A stretch of DNA of 43,793 bases, taken from positions 1 through 43,793 of the IMG/VR virus record IMGVR_UViG_3300039918_000006; one strand, written 5' to 3'. The DNA comes from a virus. The notes below the pieces were generated by a model, which saw only the letters and a program-made list of their open reading frames with translations, did not search any database and was not told where the DNA came from. Below are positions 5,714-31,106 of the stretch, piece after piece. The translations under genes were made by a program, and so were the position numbers. The stretch's first letter is position 1. Each line of letters starts with the position of its first letter.

Positions 5714-7636
5714 ATGGAACAATATGCGGACGTAATGATAGATCCCCAGGGGAATGTTGTAGCCAATGCTCTGGTTCCAATTCTCGATTCCCAAGGCGTT
5801 CTAGCAAAGATATTCCAGTCAAATAGCCAGATTTCGCCTGCCGCCAACCCCATCCGAACGGGATCGTTAGGGGAATTTGCTTTCTATGCTCGCAATGGAC
5901 GATATCGGTTAGGAAACGTCTCTGTCGGCGATAAGGTATTCCCGTTACCGCACCGAGAAATATTGCTGTACGACCCGACAGATGATGTAGGTGGAATTCC
6001 TGTGCGAGTTGATCGGCTTGAATCGAGCGTCGAACAACTCGACATCGAAGCCGATGCCGCAACCCAAGCACTCGACGCCCTGCAACTTCCCGACTACGCC
6101 GCCCTGCGCGCGTACAAGGGGCCGCGGAAATCGGTCTACGTGACTGGCGCAGGCATCGCGGGCATGTTCGTGCGCGATGATGCGGACACGGCCAGCGCGG
6201 ACAATGGGGGCACCGTTATTGTTGCGGCTGGCAAGCGGTTCAAGCGTGTGGTCGACGGCGCTGTGAATGTGCGCTGGTTTGGGGTTATTGGTGACGGCGT
6301 GGCCAACGATACCGCCGCTATGCAGTCCGCGCTTGACTATCTCGCTACGGCGGCCTGTTCGCATCTTGATGCCACTGGCCTGACAATTCGCCTGACTGAC
6401 CCGGTAACGTTGCGGGCATCGCAGAAGATCATTGAGGGCAAGCGCGCGAAAGTCATCCTCGCCAGCTCCACGGCTGGATTCCGTATTGCCGGGCAAGCCA
6501 ACAAGTTTAGCGGATTCAAGTTTTCGCAGGCGTCGCAGGCCGACACGCCAACAGCGATCTACGTGTTCAACGACACCATCACGAACAATTCCAGCTACAC
6601 CCTCATTGAAGAATGTGAAGGCGAGAACGTCTATCGCGGAGTTCACTTCTACATGGGGATTACCGGCGCTGGTGCAGCGGCATACCGCCATACCGTCAAG
6701 GGCTGCCGATTCGTAAAGAACTACCTGCCGAAAGGCTGGCCGGGCAGTTTCGGCATTGCCTTCGACGGCCCGAATTCAGGTGACGCTGCCGGCAACGATT
6801 CGCGCGTCATCGATACCTTTGTGAAAGGCTACGAAAGCAACTACCTCGTCCACAACTCCGTCGCTACGGCCTTTATTGCCTGCTCGGGCGATGGTTCGGG
6901 CGCTAATGGCTGCTTCAAGTATTCGGGCAACTCGTCGGGCATTCGTATCATTGGAGGCTATTACGAGTATCTCGACAGCTTCATTCATTGCACCGATGGC
7001 GCTAAGTACGATGCGTACATCCTGTACCCATCCGTCGCCAACGTAACCAACGCGCTTATTACAGGCGACGGGATCACTTTCGTTTCCGGTGGCTGGTCTA
7101 TTGGTACGGCAAACCAGAGTGAAATCAAGAACGGCGCATATAAAACCACTGGCACGGCGGTTGCCGAGGTGTGGGCTGCGAACGGCCTGCAAGTGTATTC
7201 GCACAAGGACAAGATCCTGCGCATGTCGGTCGACAACGCCGGCACGTTCCTGTTCGACGGCACGTTCGCCTTCAAGGGGTTGATGAGTGTCGATACCATC
7301 CGGGGCTATACGGGTGGTGGCACGCCGCTCAAGATCGTCCTTACCTCGGCCTCGACGTTGACGCGGCTGGTATTTGGCACCAACTCGACCGAGCGCTGGG
7401 AAGTCCCGTTTGCGGGCGACTTCCAGCCCGTCACTGACAACAGCGTGAATTTCGGCAGCGCAGCGAAACGCGCCGCAACCGCCTTTGCCTACAATCTGAA
7501 CCTCAAGCCGCCCGCGTCGGCAACGCCTGCCAACAACGGCGAAATGACGTTCGAGCTGACGAGCAACACACAGTTGCAAGTAAAGGTGAAGGGTTCCGAT
7601 GGCGTGGTGCGCAGCGCAGCCCTGACGCTGGCATAA
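5714..7636 (+). CDS. Tail protein with pectate-lyase-like right-handed beta-helix domain (putative tailspike/depolymerase)
   Basis: 640 aa and the first gene after the tape measure. The motif VNVRWFGVIGDGVANDTAAMQSALDYL matches the conserved start of pectate_lyase_3-type beta-helix domains. Confidence 0.65.
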   Translation: MEQYADVMIDPQGNVVANALVPILDSQGVLAKIFQSNSQISPAANPIRTGSLGEFAFYARNGRYRLGNVSVGDKVFPLPHREILLYDPTDDVGGIPVRVDRLESSVEQLDIEADAATQALDALQLPDYAALRAYKGPRKSVYVTGAGIAGMFVRDDADTASADNGGTVIVAAGKRFKRVVDGAVNVRWFGVIGDGVANDTAAMQSALDYLATAACSHLDATGLTIRLTDPVTLRASQKIIEGKRAKVILASSTAGFRIAGQANKFSGFKFSQASQADTPTAIYVFNDTITNNSSYTLIEECEGENVYRGVHFYMGITGAGAAAYRHTVKGCRFVKNYLPKGWPGSFGIAFDGPNSGDAAGNDSRVIDTFVKGYESNYLVHNSVATAFIACSGDGSGANGCFKYSGNSSGIRIIGGYYEYLDSFIHCTDGAKYDAYILYPSVANVTNALITGDGITFVSGGWSIGTANQSEIKNGAYKTTGTAVAEVWAANGLQVYSHKDKILRMSVDNAGTFLFDGTFAFKGLMSVDTIRGYTGGGTPLKIVLTSASTLTRLVFGTNSTERWEVPFAGDFQPVTDNSVNFGSAAKRAATAFAYNLNLKPPASATPANNGEMTFELTSNTQLQVKVKGSDGVVRSAALTLA

Positions 7637-15976: not shown

Positions 15977-16419
15977 TTCGGTTCTCTCGTTTCCACTGAT
16001 TCTTCACGTAATGCAGCCTCTGCTAATATCCCCTTGATGTGATCAAGGACAGGACCATGCATGTATTCGTCTGCGTGAAACCCGCACATCTCTTGAATCT
16101 CAAGCATGTCACGCACGATACCGCCTGCCTCGCACCGACGCGATTCACGGCCTGCTTCTAGTCCTGCTTCGAAAGCATCCTCCTGAATGTCGACAACTGT
16201 ATCTCGGCTGTAGCCCCACCGAACATCCCTCATGTCATCCATTTCTGGCAGCGATGGGAGTTCGCATTCTGCTGCCTGCTTATTAGCATCAGACTTGGAT
16301 TTCAGAATGTAGACTTTGCAACCCTCAGGAACATCTTCTGCCTTAAAGCAGACCATCGTGAATCCTTCGGTTGCCGGCATGTACGATGCAGATCCAACTT
16401 CTTTTATTTCTTTTCCCAT
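15973..16419 (-). CDS. Hypothetical protein (148 aa, acidic)
   Basis: GGGAGAG RBS. ATGA overlap with the downstream gene. It lies immediately downstream of structured element L. Confidence 0.65.
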   Translation of the reverse strand: MGKEIKEVGSASYMPATEGFTMVCFKAEDVPEGCKVYILKSKSDANKQAAECELPSLPEMDDMRDVRWGYSRDTVVDIQEDAFEAGLEAGRESRRCEAGGIVRDMLEIQEMCGFHADEYMHGPVLDHIKGILAEAALREESVETREPK

Positions 16420-16875
16420 TTCACTCTCCCTTGTTGTTTCGTTCAGGCATAAGACTAGCCAAGGGTTTGACCTCCCCCTCAGCCATACCTAACCAAGATT
16501 CCGGCTAGGTACTGCTGCTGCCACTAGGCTACCAATTCGATTTCCAGAGCGCCCGTTACGTGGGCTAATCGCCATGCGTCAAACTGTTGCTCTGTTCCTG
16601 GGATACCTTGGTAAAGTTCCACGCGCCGGCTAGTCAATAAGCGCAGACCATCAACTCCAAGCGGGTAGTCTTACTTCCCCTCTGCTATCGGGTGGAGTCC
16701 GGTCGATGTGGAAGCAGAAATGCAAAAAGCCCTTAAAGTTTCGGCTGTTCCTTGTGGAGGCAAGGGGAATCAGATCCTATCTAATCCCAAAAACAACCGA
16801 AGCTTTAAGGGCTTCAACCTGTCAACGCCTCCACATCGACAATTCAATTATTACGCAGCTTCAACCACCTTGCAA
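16420..16875 (-). ncRNA. Structured non-coding element L (candidate riboregulator / sRNA / ssDNA signal), paralog of element R
   Basis: No credible ORF. Promoter-like TTGCAA (16870-16875), 17-nt spacer, AATAAT (16847-16852) on the minus strand. Long hairpin plus U-tract, a pseudoknot-capable leader, and colinear similarity to 22507-22937. Confidence 0.5.
16716..16815 (-). terminator. Long hairpin with U-tract inside element L
   Basis: Minus-strand GAAGCCCTTAAAGCTTCGG (rc 16797-16815) pairs with CCGAAACTTTAAGGGCTTT (rc 16726-16744) with 1 mismatch and 1 G-U. The loop is 52 nt and is followed by TTTTTGCATTTCT. Confidence 0.5.
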
Positions 16876-17055
16876 GCGTTTTCTCTCTTGAAGCTTCACT
16901 AGGAACAGTTCCCACAGGCCCGCGTGCATCTTGGCCTTGCCTCCTTCCCAGTCTTGCCAGGTTCTCAGCTTGGAGTGGATAAGATCGGCTGCTTCTGCTT
17001 GCGTGAGCGTTTCCTCTAGACGCTTGGTCTTGATCTCACTTGGTTCTGGTATCAA
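16861..17055 (-). CDS. XRE-type helix-turn-helix protein
   Basis: 64 aa. RLEETLTQAEAADLIHSKLRTWQDWEGG is a typical HTH_XRE core. Confidence 0.65.
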   Translation of the reverse strand: MIPEPSEIKTKRLEETLTQAEAADLIHSKLRTWQDWEGGKAKMHAGLWELFLVKLQERKRLQGG

Positions 17056-17852: not shown

Positions 17853-18482
17853 TTAAAGTCCTAGTGCAGAGAAAATGCCTTTCGGCGCTGTGTTTGGCTT
17901 GATGCCGCGCGCTACCCGCTGTTCTTCGCGCGACATACGACGGAAACTGATACGTTCCTTGCTTGTCTCATTGCCGACCGCGTAGACGGCTGCACGCGAG
18001 CCTTTGGGATGCGGCAAGATCCAGGCGCGTACGTGAATCGATCCCTCTTGCTTCAGCGCGTAGATAATGAATCGGGTATAGCTATAGCTGATACCTAGAC
18101 GCTTGGCGAGATCGTAGGTGGTGCTCGGCAGCGCCAATGCAGTCAGAACTTTCTCTTTCCAGATGTCGGCCTTCTTCTCGATCTTCGTCTTCGGAGCTGG
18201 TACATAGATCACATCGGGATTACTTCCAGCCGCATAGACCTTCGCAGGCTTGTTGCGGTCCACTGGCTGCCATGCGGCCACGTAGACACGTTTCTGTTCG
18301 TGCAGGATGCTCAGATAGTCGCGCGCCGTATCGTGGCTTACGTGCATGGTCTGGCTTAGCTCCTTGGCTGTCATCTGATTGGTGGCCAGCAGATCAAGGA
18401 TGCGAGCAATCCGACGATCCATACGAGGGGTTGCGCGACTTGCTTGCTCGGGTGTTCGTGGATTTCCCATTTCATTCCTCAA
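17853..18482 (-). CDS. Tandem winged-helix DNA-binding protein
   Basis: 209 aa with two wHTH-like segments: ILDLLATNQMTAKELSQTMHVSHDTARDYLSIL and LALPSTTYDLAKRLGISYSYTRFIIYAL. Confidence 0.55.
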   Translation of the reverse strand: MRNEMGNPRTPEQASRATPRMDRRIARILDLLATNQMTAKELSQTMHVSHDTARDYLSILHEQKRVYVAAWQPVDRNKPAKVYAAGSNPDVIYVPAPKTKIEKKADIWKEKVLTALALPSTTYDLAKRLGISYSYTRFIIYALKQEGSIHVRAWILPHPKGSRAAVYAVGNETSKERISFRRMSREEQRVARGIKPNTAPKGIFSALGL

Positions 18483-18708
18483 TAACCATCTGTCGCGGGT
18501 CTACTTCCCGCAGAATGTAGATAACGTCCTCTTGATCGCAGTTAGCCAGGCCAGCCAGCAGCGCGAGTTCTACGGCCTTGTTGCAGACAGAGACGCGCTG
18601 GCGTTGGAACAGGCAGTTCCGGCAGGCGCGACCTGGCTTAGTGGTGAAGTTCAGGCTAGCAGGGTTGATAGGTGCGTCGTAGAGGTCAGCTAGGGCGACC
18701 ATGTTCAT
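18472..18708 (-). CDS. Hypothetical protein (78 aa)
   Basis: ORF in the operon, overlapping both neighbours by a few nt. Confidence 0.55.
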   Translation of the reverse strand: MNMVALADLYDAPINPASLNFTTKPGRACRNCLFQRQRVSVCNKAVELALLAGLANCDQEDVIYILREVDPRQMVIEE

Positions 18709-20993: not shown

Positions 20994-21001
20994 CAAAGTT
21001 G

Positions 21002-22192: not shown

Positions 22193-22510
22193 ATGAGTGT
22201 CATCAATGACTACATGAAAAACAATCGTAGCAAGAAACATGGTTGGCTGGTACGGCGTTTGGCTTGCAACGACGGCTTCACCATGTCTGTGCAAGCATCG
22301 GAATATAACTATTGCAAGCCGCGTCGCTCAGATGAGGATTGGTATTACCAAGTTGAGGTCGGCTATCCTAGCGAAAAACCTTCCGCTTTCCTTGAGTACG
22401 CAGAAGATCCAAACCAGCCGACGGAAACGGTATATGGGTACGTTCCCGTCGAACTGGTCGAGCAAGAGATTGCGCTTCATGGCGGTTTGAAAGGACCACA
22501 AGAAGATTGA
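22193..22510 (+). CDS. Hypothetical phage protein (105 aa)
   Basis: GGGGAG RBS. Conserved-looking core GFTMSVQASEYNYCKPR...VYGYVP...HGG. Confidence 0.65.
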   Translation: MSVINDYMKNNRSKKHGWLVRRLACNDGFTMSVQASEYNYCKPRRSDEDWYYQVEVGYPSEKPSAFLEYAEDPNQPTETVYGYVPVELVEQEIALHGGLKGPQED

Positions 22511-22937
22511 CGCAGATTAGTCTGCTTGATGTAGAATGTGCTTGTTGGCGTGGAAACCGACGAACAGTAGTGACCTAAGCCTCTTAGGTTTGAGCCCGCA
22601 AGATTACGAAATGGAATAGAGCCCATTTCCTAAGATTGTTTCCACCGGGTTCAAACCTAAGGGGCTTTTTGCTTTTCTAGACCACGCCAGCCGTACTCCA
22701 GACGATACCAAGCGCAAACCTCGGCGGCGTGGAAGAACAGAGTAGCGGTAGAGCTTAGGCTCAAGGTGCAATTCCTACAATCCGCTGGCTGGCGTAAATC
22801 CTGCGGCCAAGGGCGTAACGGCTAGACCGTTAGCTGGCAGGAATCCCGTAAGGGGGCGGCGTCCAAACCTTCCTGCCTCATAGTCTCCGGGGTTAGGGGG
22901 CGTTTGGGCGGAATTATCTTAACTAAAGGGGAAGAGG
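22507..22937 (+). ncRNA. Structured non-coding element R (candidate riboregulator / sRNA / ssDNA signal), paralog of element L
   Basis: No credible ORF. TTGACG (22507-22512), 19-nt spacer, TAGAAT (22532-22537). A 19-bp hairpin plus U-tract, a pseudoknot-capable leader, and a G+C-rich hairpin-dense 3' part reaching the next RBS. Confidence 0.5.
22579..22676 (+). terminator. Long hairpin with U-tract inside element R
   Basis: 22579-22597 pairs with 22647-22665 (17 Watson-Crick + 2 G-U). The loop is 49 nt and is followed by TTTTTGCTTTT. Confidence 0.5.
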
Positions 22938-23282
22938 ATGAAAAAAGGCGTGCTAATGGGTTACCGCCTTGAGTGGAAACCCGGAGATTACATCTACGAA
23001 TCTCCAGAGCACTACGCTAAAGACATATGCAAAGCAAGTGCTAGAACTTGGGGGTTATACACCGAGCCTCAAGAGGGATGCGATCAGGCCATAGAGGTCT
23101 ACTACGGAAGACATTGGGTTCAGCCTAAGAATGTTCACGGAAAGTGCCTAGATGGATTCACAGCACTGTATCTCGGTCCGATCTTGCATCAGCCGCCAAT
23201 CGATGAAGATATCATCTTCGCTTTCCCGAGCATTGTGGAAGATTTACTTAGGACTTCCAAGCCTGAACTATTTAAGGAGTAG
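22938..23282 (+). CDS. Hypothetical protein (114 aa)
   Basis: AAGGGGAAGAGG RBS, immediately downstream of element R. Confidence 0.65.
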   Translation: MKKGVLMGYRLEWKPGDYIYESPEHYAKDICKASARTWGLYTEPQEGCDQAIEVYYGRHWVQPKNVHGKCLDGFTALYLGPILHQPPIDEDIIFAFPSIVEDLLRTSKPELFKE

Positions 23283-30552: not shown

Positions 30553-31106
30553 CAATATGCACTTTCTGCATAGTCCTATCAAATGACTTTTCTGTTGCTC
30601 AATGCTCGCTAGTGTGAGATGATTTGCATGTTCCTGCTCTGCTTAGGCATCAGGCTTGACAGCGTAACTTCGGGATAAGCTGACGACTGGTGAAAATCCA
30701 GTCACCACACGCATGCTGATTGAACGTACTGGGGCGCTCCGGGCTGGGCCTAAACCCAAGTAAACCGGCCGTGAGACAGTCAGCAGTCGTGTGGTGAATG
30801 CGCAGGCTGATGCGATGGAACAGCCGGAAAAAGTGATAGTCCGCGAAATCGCCCCTCTGCGGATTTAGAGGCGAAGGCAAGCCGGAGATCAGCACCGGCC
30901 ACCACACCAATCAAATCATCTTTGCCGCTCGGCACGGATAAAGTGCAATTATTGCATTCTCCCTCCCTTATTTACGCTAAGCTTGCTCGGATTGGAGCTA
31001 CTCCTTGCAGCTATGGCAGCAGTGCCAAATGCAGAAGCAAGAGTAGTAGTAATTGCACAGTAGACGTGGTAATCTGTAGTCTCTTATCCCTCCCAAGGAA
31101 ACTAAC
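30553..31106 (+). other. 554-nt gene-free, highly structured region (possible RNA element and/or cos-associated DNA)
   Basis: Only implausible ORFs are present. There are multiple long-range complementarities with mutually exclusive partners: 30703-30711 / 30788-30796 / 30900-30907, and 30943-30950 / 31051-31058. Confidence 0.45.

Follow-up and report, generated by a model that had tools for sequence, protein, structure and literature searches.

The virus record IMGVR_UViG_3300039918_000006 was analyzed over its positions 1 to 43,793 (the whole 43,793-nucleotide stretch being "the window" throughout), and the subject of this text is a minus-strand unit within it, element L (16875-16702, promoter to box C), together with a diverged copy on the plus strand, element R. 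The window, apparently a complete ~43.8-kb genome, is of the siphovirus type, as it encodes terminase, portal, HK97-type capsid, tape measure and spanin proteins, and no recognisable integrase, CI-type repressor or lysogeny module was found in it. Divergent early promoters lie near position 21000; L sits 4 kb along the leftward arm, after NinB, NinG and several helix-turn-helix (HTH) genes, and is followed by a 148-amino-acid (aa) open reading frame (ORF; 16419-15973) and then by an O-like/DUF6475 replication initiator gene (15976-15029), and R sits 1.4 kb along the rightward arm, before a 114-aa ORF (22938-23282) and Erf. The best-supported statement about L is that it is an attenuator and small-RNA unit with isoform-specific folds, gating delayed-early operons. 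The anatomy, conservation, covariation, strand and genomic position described below are in silico results; promoter activity, termination and action in trans are what we infer from such work.

Read out on the minus strand, all of the coordinates that an earlier note on this DNA had given for L turned out to be correct, and the unit may be broken down into the following parts:

16870-16875, minus strand: -35 hexamer TTGCAA (sequence read-out and consensus scan)
16847-16852, minus strand: -10 hexamer AATAAT, with a 17-nucleotide (nt) spacer to the -35 hexamer
16840-16841, minus strand: predicted transcription start, inferred from promoter geometry
16819-16842, minus strand: 5' hairpin P0, GUCGAUGU / GCGUUGAC, a wobble-rich stem whose loop holds the box A variable core UGGAGG
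16827-16839, minus strand: box A, TCGATGTGGAGGC, partnered by box B or, in read-through RNA, by box C
16792-16815, minus strand: 5' strand of P1 (the terminator stem), with an alternative local hairpin at 16819-16795
16765-16788, minus strand: hairpin P2, GGGAUUAGAU-AGG-AUCUGAUUCCC
16750-16765, minus strand: hairpin P3, with a CUUG/CAAG stem and the loop CCUCCA, which is the box B core
16761-16753, minus strand: box B, GCCTCCACA
16726-16749, minus strand: 3' strand of P1, running into the uridine tract (U-tract)
16720-16728, minus strand: U-tract (TTTTT at 16728-16724), the predicted 3' end of a ~120-nt short RNA
16702-16717, minus strand: box C, CTGCTTCCACATCGAC, pairing with 15 leader nt in read-through RNA only

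The promoter, 9/12 of whose positions match in the consensus scan, holds within its spacer the TGA stop (16863-16861) of the upstream 64-aa HTH ORF (16861-17055), and the leader begins at 16840 with GTCGATGTGGAGG. The long hairpin claimed by the earlier note has its arms where they had been placed (16815-16797 / 16744-16726; 19 positions, of which one is C-A and one G-U, 52 nt between the arms, and TTTTTGCATTTCT directly 3'), and a repeat finder lengthens them to 23 nt at 91% (16814-16792 / 16749-16727). The 52 nt enclosed were described correctly as to their size and their inner hairpin (16788-16765) but do not form a plain loop, being in fact a three-way junction with P2 and P3. Two alternative partners had also been claimed for the leader, and both CCTCCACA (16760-16753) and TCCACATCGA (16712-16703) are indeed complementary to it. 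What had been missed is that the leader has a 5' hairpin of its own (P0), that the small P3 hairpin has box B as its loop, and that box C is specific to a clade, being absent in two distant relatives, L276 and L282 (L-numbers denote loci of relatives in viral or metagenomic contigs). As P0 exists, the leader-to-loop pairing is to be seen as a loop-loop kiss.

The predicted structure is far more stable than the composition of the sequence would provide for: the 156-nt L RNA folds at -75.5 kcal/mol versus -40.9 +/- 3.8 kcal/mol for 200 shuffles (z = -9.0; 0/200 as good), the duplex between leader and box C reaches -27.1 kcal/mol (0/500 shuffles as good), and P0 reaches -10.9 kcal/mol (1/300 as good). 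At the base of P1, GGGC is followed by UUUUU, and every member of the family described below has a counterpart of this arrangement, which is what the sequence of a putative intrinsic terminator would look like. The 5' strand of P1 is itself palindromic (16795-16819, minus strand), giving a 9-bp hairpin followed by GUUUUUGG that the scan rated as terminator-like; since this local hairpin is present in most members, it may be a folding intermediate or a pause site. A search for transfer RNAs and transfer-messenger RNAs found none.

Element R was spotted via an inverted-repeat match and is a diverged copy of L (22507-22689, plus strand) that aligns with it across the promoter, leader, hairpin, U-tract and downstream box:

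22507-22537, plus strand: promoter, TTGACG, 19-nt spacer, TAGAAT
22541-22689, plus strand: core (inverted repeats, alignment, covariance model, folding)
22542-22563, plus strand: P0
22547-22557, plus strand: box A
22577-22598 / 22646-22667, plus strand: P1
22638-22645, plus strand: box B
22666-22670, plus strand: U-tract
22682-22689, plus strand: box C

The boxes of R differ from those of L yet match each other (leader GGCGUGGAAAC, loop GUUUCCAC, downstream CCACGCCA), and a covariance model finds exactly two copies in the window, at 113 and 62 bits, R being the one at 62 bits. Both hexamers of the R promoter are good, but its 19-nt spacer is unusual for sigma70, owing to which R might, judging by its sequence, be weaker than L or activator-dependent.

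Relatives were sought by way of the O-like replication protein, structured DNA patterns, one Erf-anchored locus and exact-protein look-ups, and some 20 distinct members were found in this manner, all of them in uncultured viral or metagenomic contigs that probably represent betaproteobacterial siphoviruses; among cultured phages, Burkholderia phage Bcep176 comes closest in its replication protein (41%). A strict-pattern metagenome scan gave only 7 true matches, 80 Erf-anchored loci contained no more than one distant member, anchoring on the 148-aa and 114-aa proteins encoded downstream led to no relatives, and a generic terminator-tail pattern tried on IMG/VR was discarded, as it yielded only chance terminators. 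Among 185,579 representative bacterial genomes (GTDB), the pattern scan gave 12 matches, every one of them a chance match inside a coding region, and hence no prophage copy, and blastn against GenBank phages returned no match to either L or R. No Rfam family was matched anywhere in the window at the gathering score, none in 16300-17000 at E <= 10 (the C4 and IsrK models included), and only spurious microRNA-type matches were seen in 22450-22960. The RNA family is new, rare and lineage-restricted.

Its members fold independently into one and the same architecture of P0 plus P1/P2/P3. The near-consensus promoter that the earlier note had assigned to L recurs, as a putative -35/-10 pair, at the same place in 20/20 members (mean match 8.65/12 versus 6.69 +/- 0.86 for random 62-nt windows); the -35 reads TTGNNN in 19/20, the scan having chosen GTTGCA in L282 with its TTG off by one base, spacers are 16-18 nt everywhere except in R, and the -10 has its last base 6-7 nt ahead of GTCGATG in most members, with three divergent ones having it 2-4 nt ahead of the reference base. 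This GUCGAUG, which might pass for a mere "spacer" motif, is conserved because it pairs with CGUUGAC in the P0 stem, the loop of which holds the box A variable core. P1 (19-26 bp) closes a three-way junction with P2 and P3; P2 is often GGGUUAAAUCCC and is wholly different in L and R of the window, and P3 has a 4-7-bp stem with a 6-7-nt loop that is the box B core. A U-run lies directly 3' of P1 in every member, and in most of them box C follows 8-15 nt beyond it and is complementary to 10-19 leader nt. Box A has, therefore, three mutually exclusive or overlapping partners: the 3' strand of P0, box B and box C.

Comparative support was quantified on an alignment of 15 sequences (A3) fitted to a model that contains the nested helices (A:C, P1, P2 and P3) and does not contain A:B. 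Within the nested helices, 90.9% of the cells are paired versus 37-52% when the strands are slid, and 21 of the 37 pairs show two-sided changes, a result that 0/500 shuffles reach; the A:C helix taken separately is 95.5% paired, with compensatory changes in 8/12 pairs. A:B, although outside the model, is 91.9% paired versus 27-60% slid, with two-sided changes in 6/9 pairs and a covariation score of 0.47 versus 0.18 (0/500 shuffles). Covariation thus supports P1, P3, A:B and A:C, the long hairpin and both of the leader pairings claimed for L among them. For P0, 87% of the cells are paired versus 26-61% slid, and the 5' hairpin of every member reaches -5 to -14 kcal/mol.

The complementarity of the boxes is retained even where nothing of their sequence is. 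Some 8-9 A:B specificities occur among 14 members, the cognate duplexes (-18 to -23 kcal/mol) beat most non-cognate or shuffled partners, and the distant members keep A and B complementary with entirely different sequences:

L276: box A CAUGUGUGCGCA, box B UGCGCACACAAG, box C absent
L281-L: box A GAUGGGC, box B GCCCAUC, box C co-varied, CCAUCACCGAC
L282: box A GUAGGAA, box B UUCCUAC, box C absent

That the unit belongs to the minus strand, as had been claimed, is borne out by the folding energies: in 16/17 members the sense strand folds with a lower energy than the antisense one, by 6.5 kcal/mol on average, with 89 G.U pairs versus 39, and the helices are thus those of an RNA read from this strand. 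The location of L just upstream of a replication initiator gene, as well as boxes B and C being direct repeats of which box A is the inverted copy, could also bring to mind an origin, iterons or operator repeats recognised as double- or single-stranded DNA. Such a DNA-level element is, however, highly implausible, given that only the transcribed strand has many G.U wobbles and few A.C appositions, that R-type copies precede recombination rather than replication genes, and that the promoter and the U-tract are conserved. The plus-strand ORFs that were listed as crossing the hairpin do exist (16706-16891 and 16708-16902) but are not conserved across the family, and a coding role on either strand was rejected, no frame being open in more than 7/17 members.

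The stability of leader pairing climbs in the order of synthesis (P0, -5 to -14 kcal/mol; A:B, -14 to -26; A:C, -16 to -36; i.e., P0 < A:B <= A:C), pairs that are wobbles in P0 give way to Watson-Crick ones in A:C, and the minimum-energy fold closes A:B while the 3' strand of P1 is still absent; these three observations are the reason why sequential refolding is proposed. A host sigma70-type promoter would fire, and the leader would first fold as the weak, wobble-rich P0; A:B, as a kiss or an extended duplex, would form once P3 has been made, and the three-way-junction RNA would be completed, P1 and the U-tract acting as an intrinsic terminator. Most polymerases would stop there and release a ~120-nt RNA with its P0 loop matched to its P3 loop, whereas those reading through would make box C, which, with GUCGAUG as its toehold, would strip the whole of box A from box B into the stronger helix, and the read-through mRNA, folded differently, would continue into the 280-nt structured leader and the genes. 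The terminator would in this manner limit entry to the operon, and the matched loops, by analogy with known systems, might let the short RNA recognise transcripts of its own unit, within or between molecules, in which case expression would track the amount of short RNA already made and the unit would serve as an attenuator, or a timer, that senses itself. For boxes A, B and C there are no further complementary targets in the phage genome beyond chance, so that recognition would be self-directed; the feedback of the short RNA on its own unit is modelled on IsrK, P4 CI and plasmid kissing-loop attenuation.

The reading preferred here is, accordingly, that L is a self-contained RNA gate or attenuator heading the replication operon, giving rise to a short RNA by termination and to an mRNA that is refolded upon read-through, and we would assign it a probability of roughly 55%; R is proposed to be its counterpart heading the recombination operon (and possibly also a late one). 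Judging by sequence and position, what the gate controls is most likely the amount of transcription entering the replication and recombination genes. Several points weigh against this. The use of the promoter, the 3' ends of the RNA and the share of read-through are predicted, and the promoter spacer of R is the unusual one of 19 nt. No classical antiterminator/terminator competition by which A:B could alter termination was found, because box B does not overlap P1, and, going by a simple hand-made distance estimate, P1 could be formed together with A:B. A switch of the ribosome-binding site (RBS) by leader refolding was modelled and rejected, since blocking box A in silico did not consistently change RBS accessibility. 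P0 shows one-sided changes only, with no two-sided compensatory ones, in the aligned clade and is rated lower for it; L276 and L282 lack box C, which is also doubtful in L243, so the A:C state is not universal; and variability is not obviously higher in the loops than in the stems (a GGAGG loop is common to four members in which P1 differs), so there is no clear sign of diversifying selection for specificity in trans. A more far-reaching version, towards which we remain tentative and against which the odds stand, would have a protein-free self-sensing switch in which the ~120-nt RNA accumulates with genome copies and time and kisses its own nascent transcripts (L and R being orthogonal), tuning read-through or the mRNA fold and taking the place of N/Q/put-type antitermination or plasmid-style antisense copy control, with the long leaders, Betaproteobacteria-1 included, as the downstream half of the device.

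Those leaders are a conserved feature in their own right. The earlier note was right that some 280 nt without an ORF precede the next gene (282 ORF-free nt before the ATG at 16419), but had missed that the region is itself a conserved structured leader: in all members the terminator is followed by 210-300 nt free of ORFs, and these fall into conserved classes with compensatory changes in their hairpins. Class III, seen in relatives only, is the Rfam orphan motif Betaproteobacteria-1 (RF02932), which is found in L122, L166, L167 and L171 at 58-73 bits versus a gathering score of 49.4, starts exactly at the end of box C and makes up the first 120 nt of the long leader:

16420-16701, minus strand: class I leader of the window (L), ~80% identical in L120 and L121
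22690-22937, plus strand: class II leader of the window (R), before the 114-aa ORF and Erf recombination genes
L167 6546-6426, minus strand: RF02932 match
L166 12330-12449, plus strand: RF02932 match
L122 4876-4994, plus strand: RF02932 match
L171 1882-2004, plus strand: RF02932 match

The RF02932 model has neither the promoter nor the three-way junction nor the boxes of element L, the main text of the paper introducing the motif does not discuss it, and neither the class I and II leaders of the window nor the core match RF02932 or have any meaningful match in Rfam. The class II leader is common to R of the window, L163, L168, L169 and L281-R, and L163, L168 and L169 have it behind L-type cores; core and leader recombine as modules. 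A put-like or Rho-shielding role of the class I and II leaders is possible.

As for its surroundings, the unit stands without exception at the head of either a replication module (with an O-like/DUF6475 initiator or with helicase plus primase, and often with a variable first gene in front) or a recombination module (Erf, or RecT plus exonuclease), and the L281 genome holds another divergent element pair with two different loop specificities. That first-gene slot after the leader appears to be an accessory one, as it holds Acb3 (an inhibitor of the cyclic-oligonucleotide-based anti-phage signalling system, CBASS, i.e., anti-CBASS), antirepressor-type Rha+ANT, KilA-N or HNH genes in L121, L122/L168/L169, L281/L282 and L178, and the 148-aa and 114-aa slot proteins of the window might, by analogy, be anti-defence candidates. 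Whether all of this amounts to anything beyond a passive structure, namely the terminator of the upstream early operon lying beside an ordinary promoter, with A:B and A:C only protecting the 5' end, insulating folding or making an RNase III site and switching nothing, has to be considered, as no other terminator lies between the upstream genes and the element for either L or R of the window, the long irregular helix of A:C plus P1 resembles an RNase III substrate, and modelling showed no RBS switch. We nevertheless regard it as unlikely: L120, L121 and L282 have a plain terminator upstream of the promoter yet retain the whole element, for which reason the unit is seen as autonomous; the terminator of the element lies downstream of its promoter and so stops that promoter's own transcripts; and three leader pairings kept at graded stability exceed what a terminator needs. 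Between the plain terminator and the -35 of the element, L282 (and this member only) has five GTCACG repeats ~11 nt apart (6120-6185), which by their sequence look like the binding array of a DNA-binding regulator.

The presence of NinB, NinG and several HTH proteins upstream of L, in a layout that recalls the nin region, a regulator and PR'-tR', leads to another explanation, in which the constitutive promoter and the terminator are a checkpoint of the kind found at lambda PR'-tR' or nut/tR1, opened by a phage antiterminator encoded in the immediate-early region between L and R, the conserved features being its loading site and the short RNA a by-product. The symmetric placement of L and R on the two arms around the divergent early promoters is in line with such protein-dependent antitermination, the conserved P2 sequence shared by several members is a potential protein site, and PR'-tR' with StxS offers a precedent. 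It seems fairly unlikely all the same: no protein family is found beside the element at every locus, the gene directly upstream differs from member to member, neighbouring regulators bear no likeness to known antiterminators (no Q, N or other antiterminator family in PHROGs, Pfam, NCBIfam and PDB sequence searches), P2 differs between L and R as noted above, and the careful upkeep of A:B and A:C complementarity would be left unexplained. If the gate does require a protein, a candidate partner is a 78-aa Cys-rich protein (…CRNCLFQRQ…C…C…; 18472-18708 on the minus strand of the window) that is encoded near the element in 7 loci, directly upstream of it in L166, and has no Pfam, NCBIfam or PDB match.

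A strong promoter and a U-tailed terminator are also the standard layout of a small-RNA gene, the cores act as exchangeable cassettes with several loop specificities, and several members drive Rha/ANT or KilA-N genes, which are genes of types under small-RNA control in P1 and N15. The main targets of the short RNA could then be sought outside its unit, be it in host mRNAs or in the early transcripts of superinfecting relatives (exclusion or immunity like that by P4 CI or P1 C4). We hold this to be quite improbable, there being no recognised integrase or lysogeny module in the window, no prophage copy among the genomes scanned and no extra complementary sites in the phage genome. In close relatives, an Imm_superinfect-family gene and NinX lie downstream of the replication module (L279 9468-9659; L280 12182-12373). 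Away from both elements, the window has a 24-nt inverted repeat (30699-30722 / 30777-30800; 83% complementary, 54 nt apart) placed between an HNH gene and the small ORFs preceding the terminase, which is possibly, by its sequence and place, another regulatory hairpin before the late genes.

Taken as an RNA gate, the element adds to a poorly known phage group a conserved RNA family with strong covariation, long-range loop-loop pairing and a three-state leader, located at the entry of early transcription into the genes of replication and recombination, which suggests that these phages gate delayed-early expression by RNA alone. The orphan Betaproteobacteria-1 motif gains a context from it, that of a 5' leader of phage early operons located behind a promoter-proximal terminator RNA, and the compact promoter-terminator-toehold design, for which nature seems to have supplied several orthogonal loop pairs, could serve as a synthetic-biology part.

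Known systems resemble the element to different extents, and it would seem to work most like IsrK of the Salmonella Gifsy-1 prophage and P4 CI (seqA/seqB/seqC). In these, one promoter serves a short RNA, stopped at a terminator of its own, as well as an mRNA made by read-through, isoform-specific folds arise from complementary boxes in the transcript and the short RNA acts on the long one, which is how P4 keeps its replication genes off (PMC4825925). The predicted short RNA and read-through isoform, the internal complementary boxes and the position before replication or antirepressor-type genes are all similar. The three boxes of L are mutually complementary and co-vary, though in another arrangement, with the 5' box pairing both the internal loop and the downstream box (whereas in P4 it is an internal box that pairs with upstream and downstream boxes). 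Further differences are that L matches no Rfam model and that its terminator is built into a three-way junction, its recognition is loop-loop and evidence of lysogeny is absent.

The lambdoid PR'-tR' arrangement likewise consists of a promoter and then a terminator, giving a short RNA (6S / StxS), with the operon beyond (PMC7547250). The constitutive-looking promoter of the element and what, by sequence, would be a strong intrinsic terminator within ~120 nt fit this, but the element heads replication/recombination rather than late genes and has two diverged copies on opposite arms, no neighbouring ORF matches a Q- or N-family antiterminator gene, and no -10-like TANNNT is obvious by eye in the conserved GTCGATG leader. 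The leader of the element also carries conserved self-complementary boxes, which PR' transcripts are not known to bear. HK022 putL and putR are two related cis RNA elements, one per early arm and downstream of the promoters, with no known dedicated protein; each is ~70 nt long, consists of two stem-loops in a V shape without a terminator and makes RNA polymerase terminator-resistant (PMC9378689). Paired copies on opposite arms are seen both in the window (L and R) and in L281; the element differs in having a terminator, P0 plus a three-way junction, and kissing loops, and the put-like candidates, if judged by analogy, are the long downstream leaders rather than the core.

Plasmids offer the remaining parallel: antisense RNA drives attenuation of the replication genes of pT181 and pIP501, and ColE1 and R1 rely on kissing-loop antisense control. 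Matched 4-8-nt hairpin loops are shared, as is a replication-gene leader that bears a terminator, and an RNA following gene dosage could likewise set read-through, but the element encodes its complementary loop within the transcript itself rather than in a countertranscript from the other strand. The consensus scan found no antisense promoter, and there is no preemptor/terminator overlap, boxes A, B and C being off the P1 strands in every member. The element is a member of none of the systems to which it has been likened, as shown by the missing model match, the other box topology, the absence of a Q gene and the built-in terminator. What is new is the family; its kind, a leader-embedded terminator RNA with self-complementary boxes, is already known.

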